Sequence record: HE978309 | From: Enterobacteria phage GEC-3S | DNA: 64,000 bases | Direction: 5' to 3' (one strand) | In this document: piece by piece, positions 16,525 to 24,257 of the stretch | Layout: the number at the start of each line of letters is the position of its first letter | Position numbering within the stretch: position 1 is the stretch's first letter | Made by a program: the position numbers and the translations under genes | Notes under the pieces: model-generated | What the model was told of the DNA's origin: nothing | Databases searched by the model: none | Seen by the model: the letters and a program-made list of their open reading frames with translations, nothing else

Positions 16525-16566
16525 TGCATTATAGGGGATCACCGATCCCCTGTCAACAACTTTTTA
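16525..16566 (-). promoter_or_regulatory. early promoter cassette (PeSL-like)
   Basis: TTGACA, spacer GGGGATCGGTGATCCCC (17-nt palindrome), TATAAT. Confidence 0.6.
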
Positions 16567-17082
16567 GTTATTTTTTAATTGCTCATCTTGCAATAGGGAA
16601 ATCACATGCTGGCGATGTTCTTCCGATTGAGGAACACCGAAAAAGTTTGTTTTGTAGAAATACTCTAATCGGTCTTCTCGTGTGCTCTCTTCCATCATGA
16701 TCGCGGGTAGTCCGAGATTTCGGAAACGTCGCTTTTCTGCTGGCGTAAAATCACTGTAATACAACATAGAATCATCATTACCCGCAATGCTAAATTCATC
16801 CTTCATAAAGGAGAATATTGCGTTTAAACGCTGTTTACCGTCCACGATTTCGATCTCATAGCGAGATCCATCATCAATCTTAGCCATTGCGATAGCACCA
16901 ACCGGAAAATCATTAATCAGGTTTTCGATAAACATACGTTTGTTTTCGGTGTCCCATACCAAAGGACGCTGATAATCTGGGTTCATGTTGATATAGCCAT
17001 CTTCTAACCACGCCTCATAAACAGAGATGACAAAGTTTTTAGTATTGGTATAGTAACGGCGTTTAGGCGTTAAACGGTTCAT
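16564..17082 (-). CDS. DUF262 (ParB/GmrS N-terminal-like) domain protein
   Basis: ORF track 16564..17118; start ATG coupled to upstream stop (TAACATG) with AGGAGA RBS; motifs PDYQRPLVWD and IVDGKQRL. Confidence 0.6.
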   Translation of the reverse strand: MNRLTPKRRYYTNTKNFVISVYEAWLEDGYINMNPDYQRPLVWDTENKRMFIENLINDFPVGAIAMAKIDDGSRYEIEIVDGKQRLNAIFSFMKDEFSIAGNDDSMLYYSDFTPAEKRRFRNLGLPAIMMEESTREDRLEYFYKTNFFGVPQSEEHRQHVISLLQDEQLKNN

Positions 17083-17083
17083 G

Positions 17084-17416
17084 TTATAGTCTCCTGAATG
17101 GATCATCACGTAAATCAATATCTTTTAAGAACTCATCCCATGAATGGCGGATATTGTTCTTAATTCTCCAGATAAGCGCAGGGATTGAACGCTCTCCCAT
17201 CTGGAAGTAGGGATCATATGATCCGTATGCCCAATATGCTACTACAATTCCACAATCAGCGCAATAGTATTCTATTTCACTTGCTGGCGACCAAATTCCA
17301 TCAATATGATCGGTGATCCTGCTTTCGATGTTATGGCTATGGCAATCAGGGCAACGGATGCAATGACCTTGTTTATCGTAATTTGACGTTAGCGAATACT
17401 TAAACAATCTCATCAT
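17084..17416 (-). CDS. zinc-ribbon protein (two CxxC pairs)
   Basis: 110 aa; CIRCPDC...CADCG. Confidence 0.5.
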   Translation of the reverse strand: MMRLFKYSLTSNYDKQGHCIRCPDCHSHNIESRITDHIDGIWSPASEIEYYCADCGIVVAYWAYGSYDPYFQMGERSIPALIWRIKNNIRHSWDEFLKDIDLRDDPFRRL

Positions 17417-18129
17417 AGATCCTTATTGGCTTCAAATACTGCCTTTGCGAATCCTCGCGGGGTAAGTGACCTGATAGTCTTTGTTCTGGTTCCTTTCCCG
17501 CCTAGCTTAGAATGCTGTTTACTGTACCCTTTATTAATATGCAACGGTTTCTTTTCTGGCATTATAAAGCCTTGTCCGGTCCATAAGCAAGTCTTTTTCG
17601 GGTACATATCACGGGCGGCGATATACTCAGGAAACGTAGGATGTTTATCATCTTCCGGCAAATAACCGCCATATTCCCACGGATGGAACATGTAATCAGG
17701 CTTACGCCACATACTAGAGATAACGCTTACAGGATTCTCTATCATGTAGGGAACTCCTAGCCATTCACCCAAATAAGCGGTTATTTTAGCTGCCCGTACA
17801 TCATGAACTTGAATCAACGGTCCTTGTTCTCGTTTCTTTCGTTCAAAGTGTGCAGCGCCACTAACAGCTAAATTGGTACACGGTGGGAATGCAAAGATAA
17901 TATCCGGTTTCCCCCATTCAAGGTCCATTGCTCTTTCCAGCCAGTTCAAATCAATCCAGGTGTTTACATAGGTAATGTTTGGATGTTCAAATCTGGTATT
18001 ATACTTTTTGTATGTACCGTGGTCGGCGTCATCCGCATTAAAGCAGACTACCTTATGACCTGCTTTAGCCCATTCTAGACCCATTATCCCCGATCCATCA
18101 AAGTTGCAGAATATTAATTTTTGTTTCAT
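17413..18129 (-). CDS. C5-cytosine methyltransferase-like SAM-dependent enzyme (compact, no obvious target-recognition domain)
   Basis: 238 aa; motif I-like FCNFDGSGIMG, PC motif FPPCTNLAVSG, ENV-like MIENPVS, C-terminal RSLTPRGFAKAV. Confidence 0.5.
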   Translation of the reverse strand: MKQKLIFCNFDGSGIMGLEWAKAGHKVVCFNADDADHGTYKKYNTRFEHPNITYVNTWIDLNWLERAMDLEWGKPDIIFAFPPCTNLAVSGAAHFERKKREQGPLIQVHDVRAAKITAYLGEWLGVPYMIENPVSVISSMWRKPDYMFHPWEYGGYLPEDDKHPTFPEYIAARDMYPKKTCLWTGQGFIMPEKKPLHINKGYSKQHSKLGGKGTRTKTIRSLTPRGFAKAVFEANKDL

Positions 18130-18619: not shown

Positions 18620-18656
18620 TGTTTGATTCTCCTAAGTGGTATCTCGTCTTGATGGT

Positions 18657-18698
18657 TGTATTGTAGGGGAGTTATCCTCCCCTGTCAACACTTTTTAT
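18657..18698 (-). promoter_or_regulatory. early promoter cassette (PeSL-like)
   Basis: TTGACA, spacer GGGGAGGATAACTCCCC palindrome, TACAAT. Confidence 0.55.
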
Positions 18699-18702
18699 AA
18701 AA

Positions 18703-18870
18703 TTATTTGTTAATTTCTGGTGCGTTGCTAGGATAGTAACCTTCTTTAACTCCGAGGTATTTCGCAACCATCCCTACAATCTTCTGTGCTACTACAATGT
18801 CAAATTTCAGATAATCTTCGCCGTAGGTTTCAATGATATATGCTTCACATGCTGCTTTAGTCTCGAACAT
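18703..18870 (-). CDS. small protein, copy A of a duplicated gene (55 aa)
   Basis: MFETKAACEAYIIETYGEDYLKFDIVVAQKIVGMVAKYLGVKEGYYPSNAPEINK; about 85% nt identity to 21979..22146. Confidence 0.5.
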   Translation of the reverse strand: MFETKAACEAYIIETYGEDYLKFDIVVAQKIVGMVAKYLGVKEGYYPSNAPEINK

Positions 18871-18902
18871 TTTGATTCTCCTATATTTCGTTTCGGTATG
18901 GG

Positions 18903-18944
18903 TGTATTATAGGGGATCTCCCGATCCCCGTCAACAACTTTTTT
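18903..18944 (-). promoter_or_regulatory. early promoter cassette (PeSL-like)
   Basis: TTGACG, spacer GGGATCGGGAGATCCCC, TATAAT, conserved leader. Confidence 0.6.
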
Positions 18945-18948
18945 AAAA

Positions 18949-19230
18949 TTATTCGTGATTAGTTTCGATGTTGTGCATTTTGCACCAGTTCAGCCAATCG
19001 ACCAGGTCTTGATAGTTGATGCTTTTATCTGCTGCCATCGTTTTTGTCTTGATACCCATATGTGCGTTATGAGTAAGCATTTTTACAGTGAACTCAATTT
19101 TATCGCCTTTAGCTTTAACATCAACCAGTTTGGTCCACTGGCTACCAGCGCCGCGAATGTTCATGCCAACGATGTTTCCGATGTATGCTTCTTTGTTTTT
19201 CAGGATTTCGGTTGCTTTGATGAATTTCAT
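18949..19230 (-). CDS. hypothetical early protein (93 aa)
   Basis: ORF track; GGAGAATCAAA RBS. Confidence 0.5.
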   Translation of the reverse strand: MKFIKATEILKNKEAYIGNIVGMNIRGAGSQWTKLVDVKAKGDKIEFTVKMLTHNAHMGIKTKTMAADKSINYQDLVDWLNWCKMHNIETNHE

Positions 19231-19261
19231 TTTTGATTCTCCAGTTCGTTTCGGTATGGGT

Positions 19262-19303
19262 GTATTATGCTATGTTCTTACTTTGGTGTCAACAACTTTT
19301 TTA
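19262..19303 (-). promoter_or_regulatory. early promoter cassette (PeSL-like)
   Basis: TTGACA, 17-18 nt, CATAAT, conserved leader ACACCCATACCGAAACGAAC. Confidence 0.55.
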
Positions 19304-19570
19304 GATATTTTCAGAAATAAATTTTAAAACTTGACGTAAATGTTTCTCATCTTTGATAGTCGCCGGAAGTTCTTCTTTTACTTCCTGTGCAAGATAGATA
19401 TTTCCGTTCCAAGTGAAAGATCCGTCTTCGTTTACGCGATAGCTGAACATCCACTCGCAATCATTTTCGATTTCATATACACATAGAAGAGTATAATCTT
19501 CAAAGCTATTGATTTCAAGGTCGAAGCCGTGACGTTTTGCAAAGTTGGTAGTGGTTTTAGTCAGTGCCAT
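19301..19570 (-). CDS. hypothetical early protein (89 aa)
   Basis: ORF track; GGAGAATCAAAC RBS. Confidence 0.5.
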   Translation of the reverse strand: MALTKTTTNFAKRHGFDLEINSFEDYTLLCVYEIENDCEWMFSYRVNEDGSFTWNGNIYLAQEVKEELPATIKDEKHLRQVLKFISENI

Positions 19571-19606
19571 TGTTTGATTCTCCTAAGTGGTATCTCGTTT
19601 CGATGG

Positions 19607-19648
19607 GTGTATTATGCTATAGGCGTGATCTGGTGTCAATTCTTTTTT
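19607..19648 (-). promoter_or_regulatory. early promoter cassette (PeSL-like)
   Basis: TTGACA then CATAAT-like -10, conserved leader variant. Confidence 0.5.
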
Positions 19649-19659
19649 TAAATTTTATG

Positions 19660-19687
19660 CAATAAAAAAGCCGACGCTATGGTCGGC
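19660..19687 (-). terminator. rho-independent terminator
   Basis: hairpin AGCCGACC-AUAGC-GUCGGCU then UUUUUUAUU. Confidence 0.5.
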
Positions 19688-19695
19688 TAATAAAA

Positions 19696-20004
19696 TCATT
19701 TAGACAAATAATCATTCAGTGCAATCCGGTCGGCGTATGCTGGTGTTACGTCAATCGCAATCACTTTAACGCGTGCTTTCTTGCGACCTGGGTTTTCACG
19801 TAACCAGTGCTCATGACCGTGAACATTTTTATACTGCGATGCTTCTTCGAAGGTACGGATCGGACCTGGGTAATCAGCGTAAAGGATCTCTAGATCTTCG
19901 GTGATGTAAAAATATACATCGTAATTGCTGTTCTCTAGCTTAAGCAGAGACTTTCGGAACATTGGGAGATTTTCGCGGGTAAATTCAAAGATATTATCTT
20001 TCAT
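19696..20004 (-). CDS. HxHW-family small protein, paralog 1
   Basis: 102 aa; YDVYFYITEDLEILY...HGHEHW...VIAIDV. Confidence 0.55.
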   Translation of the reverse strand: MKDNIFEFTRENLPMFRKSLLKLENSNYDVYFYITEDLEILYADYPGPIRTFEEASQYKNVHGHEHWLRENPGRKKARVKVIAIDVTPAYADRIALNDYLSK

Positions 20005-20026
20005 AGTATTATCCTCAATAGTTGGA

Positions 20027-20049
20027 TGAAAAGGGGCGTTAACGCCCCC
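20027..20049 (-). terminator. hairpin, weak terminator
   Basis: GGGGCG-TTAA-CGCCCC with a short U-run; near-copy of the 16005 hairpin. Confidence 0.3.
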
Positions 20050-20054
20050 ATATA

Positions 20055-20342
20055 TTAAAACAGTCCTTCCTGTACACCGTAGTAGAGTTCGTCGCTGATA
20101 ATTTCATTAATGCGACGGTGTGCATATTCCTGATTTGCGAAGTTGTCAGCAAGTTCTATTTTAGTTTCGCCGTCATGAGTCCATTTAGTGATAACTTTAC
20201 CATCTGCAAATTTGAAGTTGAACTCTTTAGCTACTGCATCGCGTACCAGACGTGCAAACTTATTGTTGCGGATTGCATTGTCGGTTTCGTGTGCAGCGTG
20301 AGCAAATTTGTTAACTTTCAGAGTGATAGTGATGTATGCCAT
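20055..20342 (-). CDS. hypothetical early protein (95 aa), related to 23382..23693
   Basis: ORF track; shared segment ...RNNKFARLVRDAVAKEFNFKF vs ...LIREVRKALAKEFNTKI. Confidence 0.5.
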   Translation of the reverse strand: MAYITITLKVNKFAHAAHETDNAIRNNKFARLVRDAVAKEFNFKFADGKVITKWTHDGETKIELADNFANQEYAHRRINEIISDELYYGVQEGLF

Positions 20343-20385
20343 AATTTGATTCTCCTAGTTAGAAAGTGTATCTCGTTTCGATGGG

Positions 20386-20427
20386 GATATTATGCTATAT
20401 CCCCGATCCGGTGTCAACACTTTTTAT
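20386..20427 (-). promoter_or_regulatory. early promoter cassette (PeSL-like)
   Basis: TTGACA; -10 CATAAT lies inside hairpin GGGGATAT...ATATCCCC. Confidence 0.5.
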
Positions 20428-20702
20428 AAAATAATTTTTTGATATTTTTCTATGATGTTCGTGTAAGTCACATCAACCGCTAGCACTGTTGCTTCGAATC
20501 CACCGTTTAGCCAATGGCTATGATCATGGTCGTGAAAGAAACCTAGACCAGTACGAAGACCTTCTTTATATTCTGCGCGTACATTCAGTTTGTCGTCGAT
20601 AAACAGATAAAACCATGAATTTTTACTAGGATTGATGATACAACCTTTCAGATTAGGGAGAATATCACGACTAAGAATAAACTTATCACCTACTTTGAAC
20701 AT
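20424..20702 (-). CDS. HxHW-family small protein, paralog 2
   Basis: ORF track 20424..20717; start ATG with GAGGA RBS; WFYLFIDDKLNV...HDHDHSHW...VLAVDV. Confidence 0.55.
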   Translation of the reverse strand: MFKVGDKFILSRDILPNLKGCIINPSKNSWFYLFIDDKLNVRAEYKEGLRTGLGFFHDHDHSHWLNGGFEATVLAVDVTYTNIIEKYQKIIL

Positions 20703-20706
20703 AATA

Positions 20707-21027
20707 TTAGTCCTCACTTATAAGGTCAAACCAATTGTTTTTCGCATAATGCTTAATGCGTGCTTGATCTGCTTCCGCTGGTGATAGATTCCATGCAACC
20801 ACTACAACTTCTGACGCATCGTCATCAGTTTCCGATACCCAATGATTGTGATTCATACAGTTATTTGCTATCGAGTGAGCAAATGATTTCATCACTGGAG
20901 ACGTATAATCATAGTAACGGATTTTCAGATTTTCATCAACATACAAATAGATCGTATAAGGTTTATATTCAGTAACAAGTAACAGACAGTTACGCAATTC
21001 TGGGAAAATCTTTTTAGTTAATTTCAT
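20707..21027 (-). CDS. HxHW-family small protein, paralog 3
   Basis: 106 aa; YTIYLYVDENLKIRY...NHNHW...VVVAWNL. Confidence 0.55.
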   Translation of the reverse strand: MKLTKKIFPELRNCLLLVTEYKPYTIYLYVDENLKIRYYDYTSPVMKSFAHSIANNCMNHNHWVSETDDDASEVVVVAWNLSPAEADQARIKHYAKNNWFDLISED

Positions 21028-21229
21028 ATTCTAGTTCTCCGTAATACACGGTAATCCATTTTTCTTCATATTTTGTATCTTTCCAGCACACAATACCGTT
21101 TACTGTGCAATCTTTGGAATTGACGAATGATTCATATTGTTCCGCATCTTCCATCATTTCATGAGCGGTCTTTTCATCGAATATATCGCAGATCGCTTTA
21201 TATGCTCGATAATCTTTAAATTTGCTCAT
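21014..21229 (-). CDS. small protein, tandem duplicate (copy 1)
   Basis: MSKFKDYRAYKAICDIFDEKTAHEMMEDAEQYESF..., paralog of the adjacent upstream gene. Confidence 0.5.
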   Translation of the reverse strand: MSKFKDYRAYKAICDIFDEKTAHEMMEDAEQYESFVNSKDCTVNGIVCWKDTKYEEKWITVYYGELEYEIN

Positions 21230-21231
21230 AA

Positions 21232-21441
21232 TTAACACCACTCAAGAGTTTTTGAAAACACATCTATCCATTGTTGAGTATATGCGGTTTCTTTCCATGA
21301 TACAATACCAGTCGAATAATGGTTTTTGTTTCCAGAAAAGGACGGGCATTTTGATGCATCTTCCATCATCTTTTCGGCGAACTCTGGTTCGTATACTCGC
21401 AAGATCTGTTGATATGCTTTATAATCTTTAAACTTACTCAT
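21232..21441 (-). CDS. small protein, tandem duplicate (copy 2)
   Basis: MSKFKDYKAYQQILRVYEPEFAEKMMEDASKCPSF... Confidence 0.5.
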   Translation of the reverse strand: MSKFKDYKAYQQILRVYEPEFAEKMMEDASKCPSFSGNKNHYSTGIVSWKETAYTQQWIDVFSKTLEWC

Positions 21442-21722
21442 AACAACACCACCGATACATCGTAATCATTCGCGACCTTATCGGCTTCTTCAACCGACAT
21501 AATACCTTCTGCGACAATTGGCATAGGGTGATCGTGATTCCACCAATGGTCATGTATATCAATTTCAGTTTTGCCGGAAAATGAATCATGTTTGACGTTT
21601 TTCACTTTATACCCGATGTGACCGTCGTGGTCAATAAAGATATAGTTTCCGAAAATCGGTGTCTGTAAAATCATACCGAAAAATTTTTCTTTGTTGTTCG
21701 GGTCGAGTGTAATCATTTTCAT
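21438..21722 (-). CDS. HxHW-family small protein, paralog 4
   Basis: 94 aa; NYIFIDHDGHIGY...HDHWWNHDH. Confidence 0.5.
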   Translation of the reverse strand: MKMITLDPNNKEKFFGMILQTPIFGNYIFIDHDGHIGYKVKNVKHDSFSGKTEIDIHDHWWNHDHPMPIVAEGIMSVEEADKVANDYDVSVVLL

Positions 21723-21734
21723 AATATATTCCTC

Positions 21735-21914
21735 TTAGAAAGGGATGGTCATTTCTTGAGCTTGTACATTCTCGTTAGGATTAAACTTCATCCAACCGAT
21801 ATTGTCTACCAGCATATGCACATTTTTATCATATCCTACGTGAGTAGTCAACACTAAATGTGCTTTACATTCAACGATGATTTCCATGTACTTCTGAACT
21901 TCGATAGCTTTCAT
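21735..21914 (-). CDS. hypothetical small protein (59 aa)
   Basis: sub-60-aa ORF MKAIEVQKYMEIIVECKAHL...; GGAGAATCAAA RBS; promoter cassette upstream. Confidence 0.4.
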   Translation of the reverse strand: MKAIEVQKYMEIIVECKAHLVLTTHVGYDKNVHMLVDNIGWMKFNPNENVQAQEMTIPF

Positions 21915-21943
21915 TTTGATTCTCCGTTTGTTGTCTTGATGGG

Positions 21944-21985
21944 AGTATCTTACTACTCCCTTTAATCATTGTCAACGATTATTTG
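21944..21985 (-). promoter_or_regulatory. early promoter cassette (PeSL-like)
   Basis: TTGACA, spacer containing GGGAGTAGTAAGATACTCCC hairpin, weak -10. Confidence 0.45.
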
Positions 21986-22146
21986 TTAATTTCTGGTGCG
22001 TTGCTCGGATAGTAACCTTCTTTAACACCCAGATATTTTGCAACCATTCCGGTGATCTTCTGTGCTACTACGATATCGAATTTCAGGTAGTCTTCACCGT
22101 GGTTTGCTACAATGTATGCTTCGCATTCTGCTTTAGTCTGGAACAT
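21979..22146 (-). CDS. small protein, copy B of a duplicated gene (55 aa)
   Basis: ORF track 21979..22212; start at MFQTKAECEAY... with GGAGAATCAAAA RBS; duplicate of 18703..18870. Confidence 0.5.
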   Translation of the reverse strand: MFQTKAECEAYIVANHGEDYLKFDIVVAQKITGMVAKYLGVKEGYYPSNAPEINK

Positions 22147-22177
22147 TTTTGATTCTCCTATATCTCGTTGGTATGTG

Positions 22178-22219
22178 TGTAGTATAGGGGATCGGTGATC
22201 CCCTGTCAACAACTTTTTT
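22178..22219 (-). promoter_or_regulatory. early promoter cassette (PeSL-like)
   Basis: TTGACA, spacer GGGGATCACCGATCCCC, TATACT. Confidence 0.55.
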
Positions 22220-22526
22220 ATTCTTCATCTTCATTTTTATCTTTATATGCGTACTTCATAAATTTGTCTGCTACTTTGTCCGCGTTTTCAGGTTCTACGT
22301 CTGACGCTAGGACAACAGCTAGTTCGGTTTTGTCGTTTCCGTCATACCAATGATTATGAGTGTCGTTTTCTTCGATATAAAACGAATCATTTGGAGTTGT
22401 TCGACAATATACGTCTAAATTCCCATCGATATAAAAGATCCAATCCGAATACAAAATGATTGCTTTAGCCAGATTTTTATTGTCTCTTACAAAAGGTTCC
22501 GCGACAAATAGCTTAGTTTGTTCCAT
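22218..22526 (-). CDS. HxHW-family small protein, paralog 5
   Basis: ORF track 22218..22583; start at MEQTKLF... with GAGGAAAA RBS; WIFYIDGNLDVY...HNHW...AVVLASDV. Confidence 0.55.
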   Translation of the reverse strand: MEQTKLFVAEPFVRDNKNLAKAIILYSDWIFYIDGNLDVYCRTTPNDSFYIEENDTHNHWYDGNDKTELAVVLASDVEPENADKVADKFMKYAYKDKNEDEE

Positions 22527-22542
22527 AATATTTTCCTCAAAA

Positions 22543-22734
22543 TTATACAGCTTCGTAAACTTCCCAATGTTCAGCGCCAACACGCTTAACGAAAAGGTTT
22601 TCTTTGATGTTATTCATAAACGTCTGGATAGATTTAATGCGGTTGGAAGGTTTCCAGTCTTCGTTGGCATTGCGGCGATACATAATAACATTACCAGTTC
22701 GCTTATATTCAGCAACCATTTTAAGATCACACAT
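22543..22734 (-). CDS. hypothetical early protein (63 aa)
   Basis: ORF track; GAGGATAAT RBS. Confidence 0.45.
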   Translation of the reverse strand: MCDLKMVAEYKRTGNVIMYRRNANEDWKPSNRIKSIQTFMNNIKENLFVKRVGAEHWEVYEAV

Positions 22735-22779
22735 AATATTATCCTCAATTTGTGGGAGAGTATTACCCCTCCCAATGAT

Positions 22780-22821
22780 TGTTATGTTATATCACACAAA
22801 ATGGCGTGTCAATGCTTCTTT
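22780..22821 (-). promoter_or_regulatory. early promoter (sigma70-like)
   Basis: TTGACA, 17 nt, TAACAT; overlaps the 3' end of the upstream ORF. Confidence 0.4.
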
Positions 22822-23112
22822 TGCGGTTCCGCTAAGACTTTCGATCTCGCCTGGCATAACATCAACCGCCAGAACTTCGACAACATCCTCGGACCCTAAC
22901 CAGTGAGTATGGCCTTTGTAGAACTTGATAACCAGACTACCTTCCTCATCCCATTTAACGCTATCGCTAGCCCACCACACATCACCGTCGATAAAGTTGA
23001 TGTAAAGCACACTACGCCACATTGAATTAATTACTTTCAATACTGCGCCTTTCATCTCTTCCACGGTATGGTCTTCCATTTTGAAGACCTCACCTACCTG
23101 AACTTTTGCCAT
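22792..23112 (-). CDS. HxHW-family small protein, paralog 6
   Basis: 106 aa; VLYINFIDGDVWW...HTHW...VLAVDV. Confidence 0.55.
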   Translation of the reverse strand: MAKVQVGEVFKMEDHTVEEMKGAVLKVINSMWRSVLYINFIDGDVWWASDSVKWDEEGSLVIKFYKGHTHWLGSEDVVEVLAVDVMPGEIESLSGTAKEALTRHFV

Positions 23113-23129
23113 TTAGTCACCTCTCTTTA

Positions 23130-23309
23130 TTACATAACAATCACGCCAGCCGTTGAAAGTTGATGTTTCAACTGAGCATTTTCTGCTACCGTCAAATCAA
23201 TGATTTCTTGTGACGCTGCAATCATATATCCATTGGTGATATTGTTTTGCATCAGTTCAATGGTTTCTTCGTTGTAGCGGATTTTAGCGATGATTTCGTT
23301 GAAGTTCAT
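23130..23309 (-). CDS. hypothetical small protein (59 aa)
   Basis: sub-60-aa ORF MNFNEIIAKIRYNEETIELMQ...; GGAGAATCAATC RBS. Confidence 0.4.
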   Translation of the reverse strand: MNFNEIIAKIRYNEETIELMQNNITNGYMIAASQEIIDLTVAENAQLKHQLSTAGVIVM

Positions 23310-23341
23310 GATTGATTCTCCTAGTTCGTTTCGGTATGTGT

Positions 23342-23383
23342 GTATTATAGGGGATCTCCCGATCCCCTGTCAACAACTTTTTT
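23342..23383 (-). promoter_or_regulatory. early promoter cassette (PeSL-like)
   Basis: TTGACA, spacer GGGGATCGGGAGATCCCC, TATAAT, conserved leader. Confidence 0.6.
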
Positions 23384-23693
23384 AAAGTTTTTCCATGATA
23401 ACGGTCATAATTACATCTTCTGCGCGAGCGGTCAGATTATCAGCGTCAGCATGTGGGCGGTTGGTTGTTACAGAGATAGCACCGTTGCGCACTGGTTTGA
23501 TATTGATATCAAGATGATCCGCGAAACGTTCGCCAGTTACAGAATGAATTTTGGTGTTAAATTCTTTTGCCAGTGCCTTGCGAACTTCACGAATCAGGGT
23601 AGCGTTTTTCAGTTGGTTCTCCGCGCTCATGGTCTTCTGGGTGTTCATGGTTCCGTCGAAGTCAATCATTGGCAGCGTTACGATGTATTTCAT
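23382..23693 (-). CDS. hypothetical early protein (103 aa), related to 20055..20342
   Basis: ORF track; GGAGAATCAAAA RBS. Confidence 0.5.
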   Translation of the reverse strand: MKYIVTLPMIDFDGTMNTQKTMSAENQLKNATLIREVRKALAKEFNTKIHSVTGERFADHLDINIKPVRNGAISVTTNRPHADADNLTARAEDVIMTVIMEKL

Positions 23694-23736
23694 TTTTGAT
23701 TCTCCGTTTAAGAAAGTGTGTTTCGTTTTGATGTGT

Positions 23737-23778
23737 GTATTATAAGGGGATCACCGATCCCCTGTCAACAACTTTTTG
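23737..23778 (-). promoter_or_regulatory. early promoter cassette (PeSL-like)
   Basis: TTGACA, spacer GGGGATCGGTGATCCCC, TATAAT. Confidence 0.6.
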
Positions 23779-23780
23779 AA

Positions 23781-24257
23781 TTATTTTTCTTGATGCTCGC
23801 GCTCGTACTTTTCGAAATAAAATTCTACTGGCTGATCGTGGATTGAAAGCAAGCCAAAGCGTTTAGCCGCTCGCAATCCCATATTGCGCTGAATGTACTT
23901 CTGGAAGTTCTCGCGTATACACTTACGCCAGTATTCTAAGCCCATACAGCTTTTATAAAGATTGCATTGCACACACGCCGGATTCATGTTATCAAGTATA
24001 TCATGTTCCGGTTTATGCATTCCTACAACCTTATACTTCCACGATCCATCATCATTACGGGCAATTCGTCCATTTTCATCATAGACTACCTTTGAGCGTC
24101 GCAATACTGGTTTGATATGGTCTGCGTGCCAGCGATCCCCTAGTTCCTCGCCACAATAGGCACAACGCCCACCGTATTTCATTTTCAGGATCTGGCGTTG
24201 CTCTTTCTTTGACAATTTTTTAGGTTTAGGGGCTTTCGCCCCTTCATTATCACACAT
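23781..24257 (-). CDS. HNH endonuclease (free-standing, homing-endonuclease-like)
   Basis: 158 aa; CAYCG...HADHIKP...N...ACVQCN HNH motif; start overlaps ligase stop. Confidence 0.65.
   Translation of the reverse strand: MCDNEGAKAPKPKKLSKKEQRQILKMKYGGRCAYCGEELGDRWHADHIKPVLRRSKVVYDENGRIARNDDGSWKYKVVGMHKPEHDILDNMNPACVQCNLYKSCMGLEYWRKCIRENFQKYIQRNMGLRAAKRFGLLSIHDQPVEFYFEKYEREHQEK

Follow-up and report, generated by a model that had tools for sequence, protein, structure and literature searches.

The hyperplastic regions of T4-type phage genomes hold hundreds of uncharacterised early genes, of which the few studied ones are host-takeover or anti-defence factors, and lineage-specific, multi-copy families of early genes are familiar in these regions. 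In this study, we have examined a 64,000-nucleotide (nt) stretch of DNA from Enterobacteria phage GEC-3S (sequence record HE978309), called the window hereafter, and in particular six small open reading frames (ORFs) at positions 19696-23112, which are denoted A to F in the order of their coordinates. A preliminary description, made from the letters of the window alone, had grouped these ORFs into a paralogous family of small early proteins with a His-rich H-x-H-W motif.

When positions 19,000-24,000 were searched with megablast, 57 phage records were matched, all of which were Krischvirus (i.e., RB49/Phi1-like "pseudo-T-even" coliphages); the closest were Phi1 and FL38 with ~98% identity. In Phi1, the counterparts of the six ORFs are ORF197 (A), ORF199 (B), ORF200 (C), ORF203 (D), ORF206 (E), and ORF208 (F), every one annotated as "hypothetical protein," and their location between gene 30 (DNA ligase)/HNH and DNA methyltransferase/alt places them in the hyperplastic region HPR3 of the T4-type genome. 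This region, its promoter-early stem-loops (PeSLs), and its "ORFans" are already known (PMC2839356; PMC4122927), and the proteins themselves are in PHROGs. For HPR3 of RB49, "eight PeSLs in an ~5-kb area" were reported (Arbiol et al. 2010, PMC2839356), and that study treats the genes as unrelated ORFans with no mention of paralogy; the word "paralog" indeed has zero occurrences in both PeSL papers (PMC2839356; PMC4122927). No description was found in the literature in which the six form a single family united by a common fold and by an invariant His-Trp motif, and searches on Krischvirus/RB49 yielded nothing relevant on the function or transcription of these genes or on their part in anti-defence. 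Here, we describe this family and tentatively favour the idea that its members are non-enzymatic early binding proteins, each with a distinct host (or phage) macromolecule, for host takeover or defence neutralisation.

Results

Six diverged paralogues and their common motif

The six ORFs are genuine diverged paralogues of one family. Among the 357 six-frame ORFs of at least 40 amino acids (aa) in the window, phmmer joined the six into one connected network, with E-values of 4e-13 for the pair A-C, 2e-5 for D-E, 7e-5 for B-C, 1e-4 for E-C, and 8e-4 for both A-E and B-F. Leave-one-out profiles, built from any five, recovered the sixth member at E = 1e-5 to 5e-14, and the best non-member had an E-value of at least 0.047. 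Of the 357 ORFs, these six and no others contain the tetrapeptide H.HW, where 0.29 would be expected from residue shuffling. The paralogy is statistically significant. A seventh member was searched for in the window, and none was found.

All six ORFs lie on the minus strand and have a GAGG/GGAG Shine-Dalgarno sequence 6-9 nt upstream of the start; the ATG starts chosen for B (20702) and E (22526) agree with the Phi1 annotation. The motif reads HGHEHW in A (19696..20004, 102 aa), HDHDHSHW in B (20424..20702, 92 aa), NHNHW in C (20707..21027, 106 aa), IHDHWWNHDH in D (21438..21722, 94 aa), THNHW in E (22218..22526, 102 aa), and GHTHW in F (22792..23112, 106 aa). The N-terminus of B is KOW-like, and the stop codon of C is only 4 nt ahead of the start of B. 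In terms of general properties, the members of the family are soluble, single-domain, and mostly acidic proteins of 77-111 aa with a pI of 4.4-6.9. A sequence 'GAGGAnAATAtT-ATG' was also noted at the starts of A, B, D, and E as well as of the neighbouring ORF207.

The family signature can be written as Y-x-Y-I-D ... H-x-H-W ... V-L-A-x-D-V. The three blocks described previously (Y-L-Y-I-D, H-x-H-W, and V-L-A-x-D-V) are indeed shared, with the exceptions of YFYIT in A, LYIN in F, IVAEGI in D, and VVAWNL in C. When 28 diverse members were aligned, no positions other than the His and Trp of "HW" were invariant; two further residues, the first His of the motif (missing in the members P0083 and P0090) and a Phe ~10 residues upstream of the motif, are near-invariant, each being retained in 26 of the 28. 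The remaining conserved positions constitute a hydrophobic core, namely L-x3-I-L in beta2, Y-L-Y-I-D in beta3, V in beta4, and V-x-V-L-A-x-D/N-V in beta5, together with the residues A-D where the C-terminal helix begins. A catalytic Cys was considered and rejected; B, C, and some relatives have a Cys following the first helix, but this position is occupied by S/M/A in A, D, E, and F.

The "conserved His cluster" of the preliminary description therefore stands only for one invariant His with its Trp, because the first His is not only missing in P0083 and P0090 but also replaced by Ser in the JEP8-type allele of gene E; this allele, which belongs to the commoner class (36 of 54 records), reads S-N-H-W, whereas E in the window has HNHW. 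Since the cluster is thus reduced to a single invariant His plus Trp, the metal binding at which that description had hinted is possible but not indicated. The main rival to the idea of early binding proteins is nevertheless built upon these residues: the family would comprise small metal-binding proteins or metal-dependent enzymes, in which Zn, Ni, or Fe would be ligated by the H-x-H pair, the conserved Asp ending beta3, and the Asp/Asn that follows beta5, possibly with ligands from both sides of a dimer interface, for the hydrolysis or sequestration of a small molecule (e.g., a signalling nucleotide) or for the sequestration of the metal itself. We consider this to be rather unlikely, and the commonest E allele, being devoid of the first His, weakens it.

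Predicted fold

The AlphaFold2 (AF2) models of A (predicted local distance difference test (pLDDT) 84.9; predicted template modelling score (pTM) 0.79) and of B (pLDDT 87.7, with five models at 86.7-87.7; pTM 0.81) have a common topology: beta1, a short helix, beta2, beta3, beta4, a long loop, a short helix with HxHW, beta5, and a C-terminal helix. The models thus suggest a five-stranded beta core that is topologically like a small SH3/KOW-type beta-barrel and is packed by the C-terminal helix, while the invariant His-Trp turn would be situated between beta4 and beta5 with two loops of variable length flanking it.

The claim that the family has no known domain was borne out. Searches of Pfam, NCBIfam, PADLOC, and PDB sequences gave isolated sub-threshold matches only, none of which recurred in more than one of the 28 members, and no family among the anti-phage defence models of PADLOC-DB was matched at E <= 1 by any of the six. 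Also, neither of the two AF2 models has a significant neighbour in PDB or BFVD, and Foldseek against BFVD returned Krischvirus paralogues only. The weak, sub-significance structural neighbours that recurred were the Tis1 immunity protein 6ox6_B (3.9 and 4.1), Cif, YopQ, and mS34; for B, AcrIIA7 (4.0), Tad2 (3.5), and the SH3-like barrels eL14, uL2-C, RimP, MazF, CcdB, and Kid were additionally found, also below significance.

The strand order of the models would fit a small barrel of the SH3/KOW-like type into which a loop has been inserted, which we take as a lead, and a B orthologue is labelled "KOW2-KOW3 domains of Spt5" by one database source. These observations would be in line with nucleic-acid- or RNA polymerase/ribosome-binding regulators that use a KOW/Sm-like small beta-barrel to modulate early transcription or translation. 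Such a role is quite unlikely in our view, and the acidity of the proteins disfavours it.

Conservation in Krischvirus

In Nei-Gojobori comparisons among eight Krischvirus loci, the median ratio of non-synonymous to synonymous substitution rates (dN/dS) was 0.20 for A, 0.06 for B, 0.16 for C, 0.14 for D, 0.18 for E, and 0.12 for F; all six are real protein-coding genes under purifying selection. In the direction of transcription, the order F-E-D-C-B-A with all six genes was found in the window, Phi1, JEP8, kvi, KFS-EC, JK32, and Skers, while five members were detected in the G2248 locus, where the gene in the E slot fell under the threshold of the hidden Markov model (HMM). A tblastn search, furthermore, detected A and D in 55 phage records each and E in 54, and these records were Krischvirus-type without exception. 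Given these numbers and the fixed order in the examined loci, the family is genus-core and not sporadic. The duplications predate the genus Krischvirus, and each copy constitutes its own orthologous group. Repeated duplication, as proposed in the preliminary description, is supported, but the proposed diversification is not: the duplications are old, the copies are fixed genus-wide with dN/dS of 0.06-0.20, and the rapid gain and loss typical of arms-race genes is not seen.

What varies among the phages is due to the replacement of alleles or paralogues and to intragenic recombination, and there is no sign of diversifying selection. Genes D and E are each dimorphic among phages that are otherwise 91-98% identical. 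The D allele of the window is a rare one (3 of 55 records), and the other 52 records are <60% identical to it with synonymous divergence (dS) being saturated; as for E, 18 records are at least 80% identical and 36 are 60-80% identical, placing the window in the minority class (18 of 54). Deeply diverged alleles or paralogues have been exchanged at the slots D and E and, in a single metagenome, also at B. In gene A (19696-20004), the substitutions are concentrated in one half, synonymous divergence clusters with them, and which half diverges varies between phages; gene A is therefore a mosaic made by intragenic recombination. Positive selection confined to the surroundings of the motif in A was rejected, because the synonymous divergence (pS) climbs along with the non-synonymous one (pN) in the variable half.

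Breadth of the family

When the six-sequence profile was run against 5.8 billion proteins in a word-indexed search, 86 clusters were hit, all of which were orthologues of A-F; none had a Pfam domain, and the largest contigs were ~165-176 kb. Among 1.84 billion representatives clustered at 50% identity, only 21 proteins reached E <= 1e-3 in an exhaustive HMM search, and one of them (P0101, 1573 aa) was dismissed as a repeat artefact because it is an RCC1-repeat protein. The family is very narrow and belongs almost wholly to the Krischvirus lineage. The divergent members (P0087-P0102) are metagenomic, and when they were compared with 50,697 cultured phage genomes, only Krischvirus was matched; IMG/VR pattern scans with P0092 and P0094 returned no match. 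A T4 homologue was not found either, the best E-value of the family HMM being 0.16 against 733 ORFs from positions 1-99,000 and 119,000-168,903, with the structural-gene block at ~99-119 kb lying outside the search.

In the divergent metagenomic relatives, the copy number ranges from one to six. Contig L014 is a Krischvirus-like genome of 169 kb with six members, among which a second C-like paralogue takes the B slot. Contig L002 (2.1 kb, metagenome SRR8048117) is syntenic with the window and carries an ORF209-like gene directly preceding an F-like gene, an ORF204-like gene, a 203-aa gene (823-1434) in which two family domains are joined head to tail, and then D-like and C-like genes; this fusion hints, as a Rosetta-stone sign, that the single-domain proteins may act as dimers. 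A more divergent T4-like phage is represented by contig L016 (20 kb), which has two members only, both E-like, in the ligase-to-alt region among shuffled homologues of ORF190, ORF193, ORF194, ORF198, ORF201/202, and ORF209. A single E-like member in another context was found on contig L018 (9 kb, metagenome DRR517650); namely, P0102 (1358-1591, 77 aa, GHNHW), the most divergent of all, is surrounded by many small ORFs and adjoined by GATase and HNH_3 genes, and its place is not the ligase-alt region. Judging from this context, the family may extend beyond Krischvirus-like phages. Wherever flanking genes could be seen, the array remains in the hyperplastic region between ligase and alt, and from the contexts of the divergent members it follows that the array is old and expanded to six copies from an initial one or two.

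These results bear upon the possibility that the six are functionless ORFan cargo, or chance ORFs, moved by PeSL-mediated shuffling. Indeed, the region has been described as rich in non-essential ORFans (PMC2839356), and gene A is truncated or frameshifted in the phages kvi and JSE; nonetheless, the low dN/dS of all six genes, the presence of A, D, and E in all 54-55 records with a fixed order of the six in the examined loci, the recognisable orthologues in deeply diverged metagenomic relatives, and the confident AF2 folds make this explanation extremely improbable.

Expression and neighbouring genes

Direct-repeat analysis revealed eight copies of a ~65-70-nt cassette with near-consensus TTGACA-N17/18-TATAAT promoters (18638-23794), and these are the PeSLs known from RB49/Phi1. 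The G/C stem-loop of the cassette (GGGGATC...GATCCCC) lies within the spacer that separates the -35 TTGACA from the -10 TATAAT, and a ribosome-binding site 'GGAGAATCAAA' is common to the PeSL-linked genes. Contrary to the preliminary description, in which several family genes were credited with a promoter cassette of their own, no member of the six possesses one; all eight PeSLs precede neighbouring ORFs, being directly upstream of ORF190, ORF191, ORF193, ORF194, ORF198, ORF205, ORF209, and ORF210 and never of a family gene.

The six genes are instead promoter-distal, in the second to seventh positions of three PeSL-driven units, all on the minus strand. The PeSL at 23322..23391 (TTGACA-18-TATAAT) drives ORF209, F, ORF207, and E in this order, and ORF209 (23130..23309, minus strand, 59 aa), which opens this unit, is outside the family. 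The PeSL at 22159..22228, which is PeSL206/205 of Arbiol et al. with an activity of ~13,000 Miller units (PMC2839356), drives ORF205, ORF204, D, ORF202, ORF201, C, and B; from ORF204 onwards, the genes of this unit are closely spaced, only -14 to 12 nt apart. The third PeSL, at 20367..20436, drives ORF198 and, behind a terminator-like hairpin (20029..20049, minus strand; GGGGGCG-TTAA-CGCCCC followed by TTTT), gene A. The 50-nt intergenic segment between ORF198 and A folds with -15.5 kcal/mol, and the hairpin was not reported by a terminator scan; gene A is probably expressed by read-through of this hairpin, which may attenuate its expression. An intrinsic terminator (19669..19688, minus strand) follows A at the end of the array. 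The T4-type late promoter TATAAATA was searched for, and none was present in the region. As predicted from the sequence, therefore, early expression of the six genes is well supported by their place in sigma-70/PeSL units and by the lack of the late-promoter motif, in agreement with the early status first ascribed to them.

In five cases, a small ORF is immediately upstream of a family gene (ORF209 before F, ORF207 before E, ORF204 before D, ORF201 before C, and ORF198 before A), and the family proteins might accordingly be antidotes, immunity partners, or halves of two-gene modules. The upstream ORFs are, however, mutually unrelated, and B directly follows C; the two members on L016 follow ORF193-like and ORF190-like genes, so that the partners are not conserved; and no toxin-like domain was seen. 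We thus regard such modules as very unlikely.

Several of the neighbouring genes are themselves duplicated. ORF191 and ORF205 (18703-18870 and 21979-22146, minus strand), each directly behind its own PeSL, are recent duplicates with 85% identity over 172 nt (protein E = 4e-33). ORF201 and ORF202 (21014-21229 and 21232-21441, minus strand), between D and C, are tandem paralogues (E = 4e-19) with a single homologue on L016. The PeSL-linked ORF198 (20055-20342) and ORF210 (23382-23693), of 95-103 aa, match the same ORF of L016 at 3e-43 and 2.8e-4, respectively, and may be distant paralogues. The array is also flanked by a DUF262/GmrSD_N-like ORF (16564-17118), a Dcm-like DNA methyltransferase (17413-18129), and an HNH endonuclease abutting the ligase gene (23781-24257), of which the first two likely have restriction or anti-restriction-related functions.

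Discussion

The explanation that we tentatively favour, early binding proteins, would operate as follows. The family proteins would be produced in the first minutes of infection as early, cytoplasmic proteins, and each would have its own host (or phage) macromolecule as a target of stoichiometric binding; the fold or a shared contact, possibly in dimers, would be supplied by the scaffold common to all and by the His-Trp turn, while the variable loops and surfaces would determine the target specific to each paralogue. Stoichiometric binding is favoured because the proteins are small with no detectable enzyme-like fold or domain, because a conserved scaffold carries a conserved turn between length-variable loops and the paralogue identities are deep but stable, because a natural two-domain fusion exists, and because genes in the neighbourhood are host-directed (Alt/ADP-ribosyltransferases, the DNA methyltransferase, and the GmrSD_N-like ORF). 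A role in host takeover or anti-defence is plausible, and the family is a sound but ordinary candidate for it.

Several points weigh against this explanation. Neither experiment nor homology connects the proteins with any target, and all of the structural similarities are under significance. The family is genus-core rather than variable in its presence, unlike many anti-defence genes, and there is no signature of diversifying selection, with pN/pS in A not exceeding ~0.3 even within its variable half. Furthermore, a catalytic or metal site would be an equally good reading of the invariant His, the near-invariant second His, and the D and D/N positions.

A more specific form of the binding-protein idea can also be envisaged, in which the six genes are a genus-core "inhibitor array" on an unrecognised fold family; the His-Trp turn, possibly metal-bridged in a dimer, would be a generic docking element, and the paralogues would have been retargeted to different immune or housekeeping proteins of E. 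coli. This is unlikely, but if true, it would explain how Krischvirus phages, with their cytosine DNA, cope without the hydroxymethylcytosine/glucosylation shield of T4. The family alone reveals no new mechanism; it is less a surprise than a clean candidate that lends itself to testing. With its signature, confident models, phylogenetic range, one to six copies, natural fusion, and natural loss-of-function alleles of A, it nonetheless becomes a tractable target in Phi1/RB49.

In comparison with known systems, the H-x-H pair near a beta-strand resembles that of the HxH metal-site families (metallo-beta-lactamase HxHxDH, JAMM/MPN HxHx7Sx2D, cupin, and HIT), while the context of the motif, the spacing of further ligands, the domain size, and the fold all differ; Pfam matches were isolated, sub-threshold, and confined to single members (PROCT, 0.0017; Cupin_2, 0.19). 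Namely, HxHxDH in an alpha-beta/beta-alpha sandwich of at least ~200 aa (the metallo-beta-lactamase fold) and the E...HxHx7Sx2D motif in an MPN fold (JAMM/MPN metalloprotease) are not found here, and the two cupin motifs are missing from the alignment, the Cupin_2 match (E = 0.19) being limited to one of the 28 members. Small phage inhibitor proteins with alpha/beta or beta-barrel folds (AcrIIA7 and Tad2/DUF2829) and the Tis1 immunity protein of the type VI secretion system effector Tas1 are also among the closest systems; as for DUF2829 (Tad2/AcrIIA7-like sponges and inhibitors), neither its Pfam signature nor its fold was observed. Likeness to the small beta-barrels (SH3/KOW/Sm-like) would consist in the five strands, the tight beta3-beta4 hairpin, and the short helix just before beta5, and the N-terminal sequences of B and F are KOW-like.

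With the mobile cassettes of a PeSL plus an ORFan, the locus shares the replacement driven by recombination, which is seen here at the slots D, E, and B; a PeSL immediately upstream of the ORF is, however, not a feature of the six family genes, and instead of differential presence or absence, the six are fixed across the genus with only alleles or paralogues being replaced. As to the PeSL-associated ORFans of HPR3 in RB49/Phi1 (PMC2839356), the genes are the same, in the same region and in early sigma-70 units. In PHROGs, finally, each paralogue fits one of five "unknown function" families (E = 1e-49 to 1e-73), i.e., 9345 (A and C), 17255 (B), 15972 (D), 15965 (E), and 16486 (F), which are united here into one superfamily by the common fold and motif; six "unrelated ORFans" and five separate PHROGs hence become one well-defined family.

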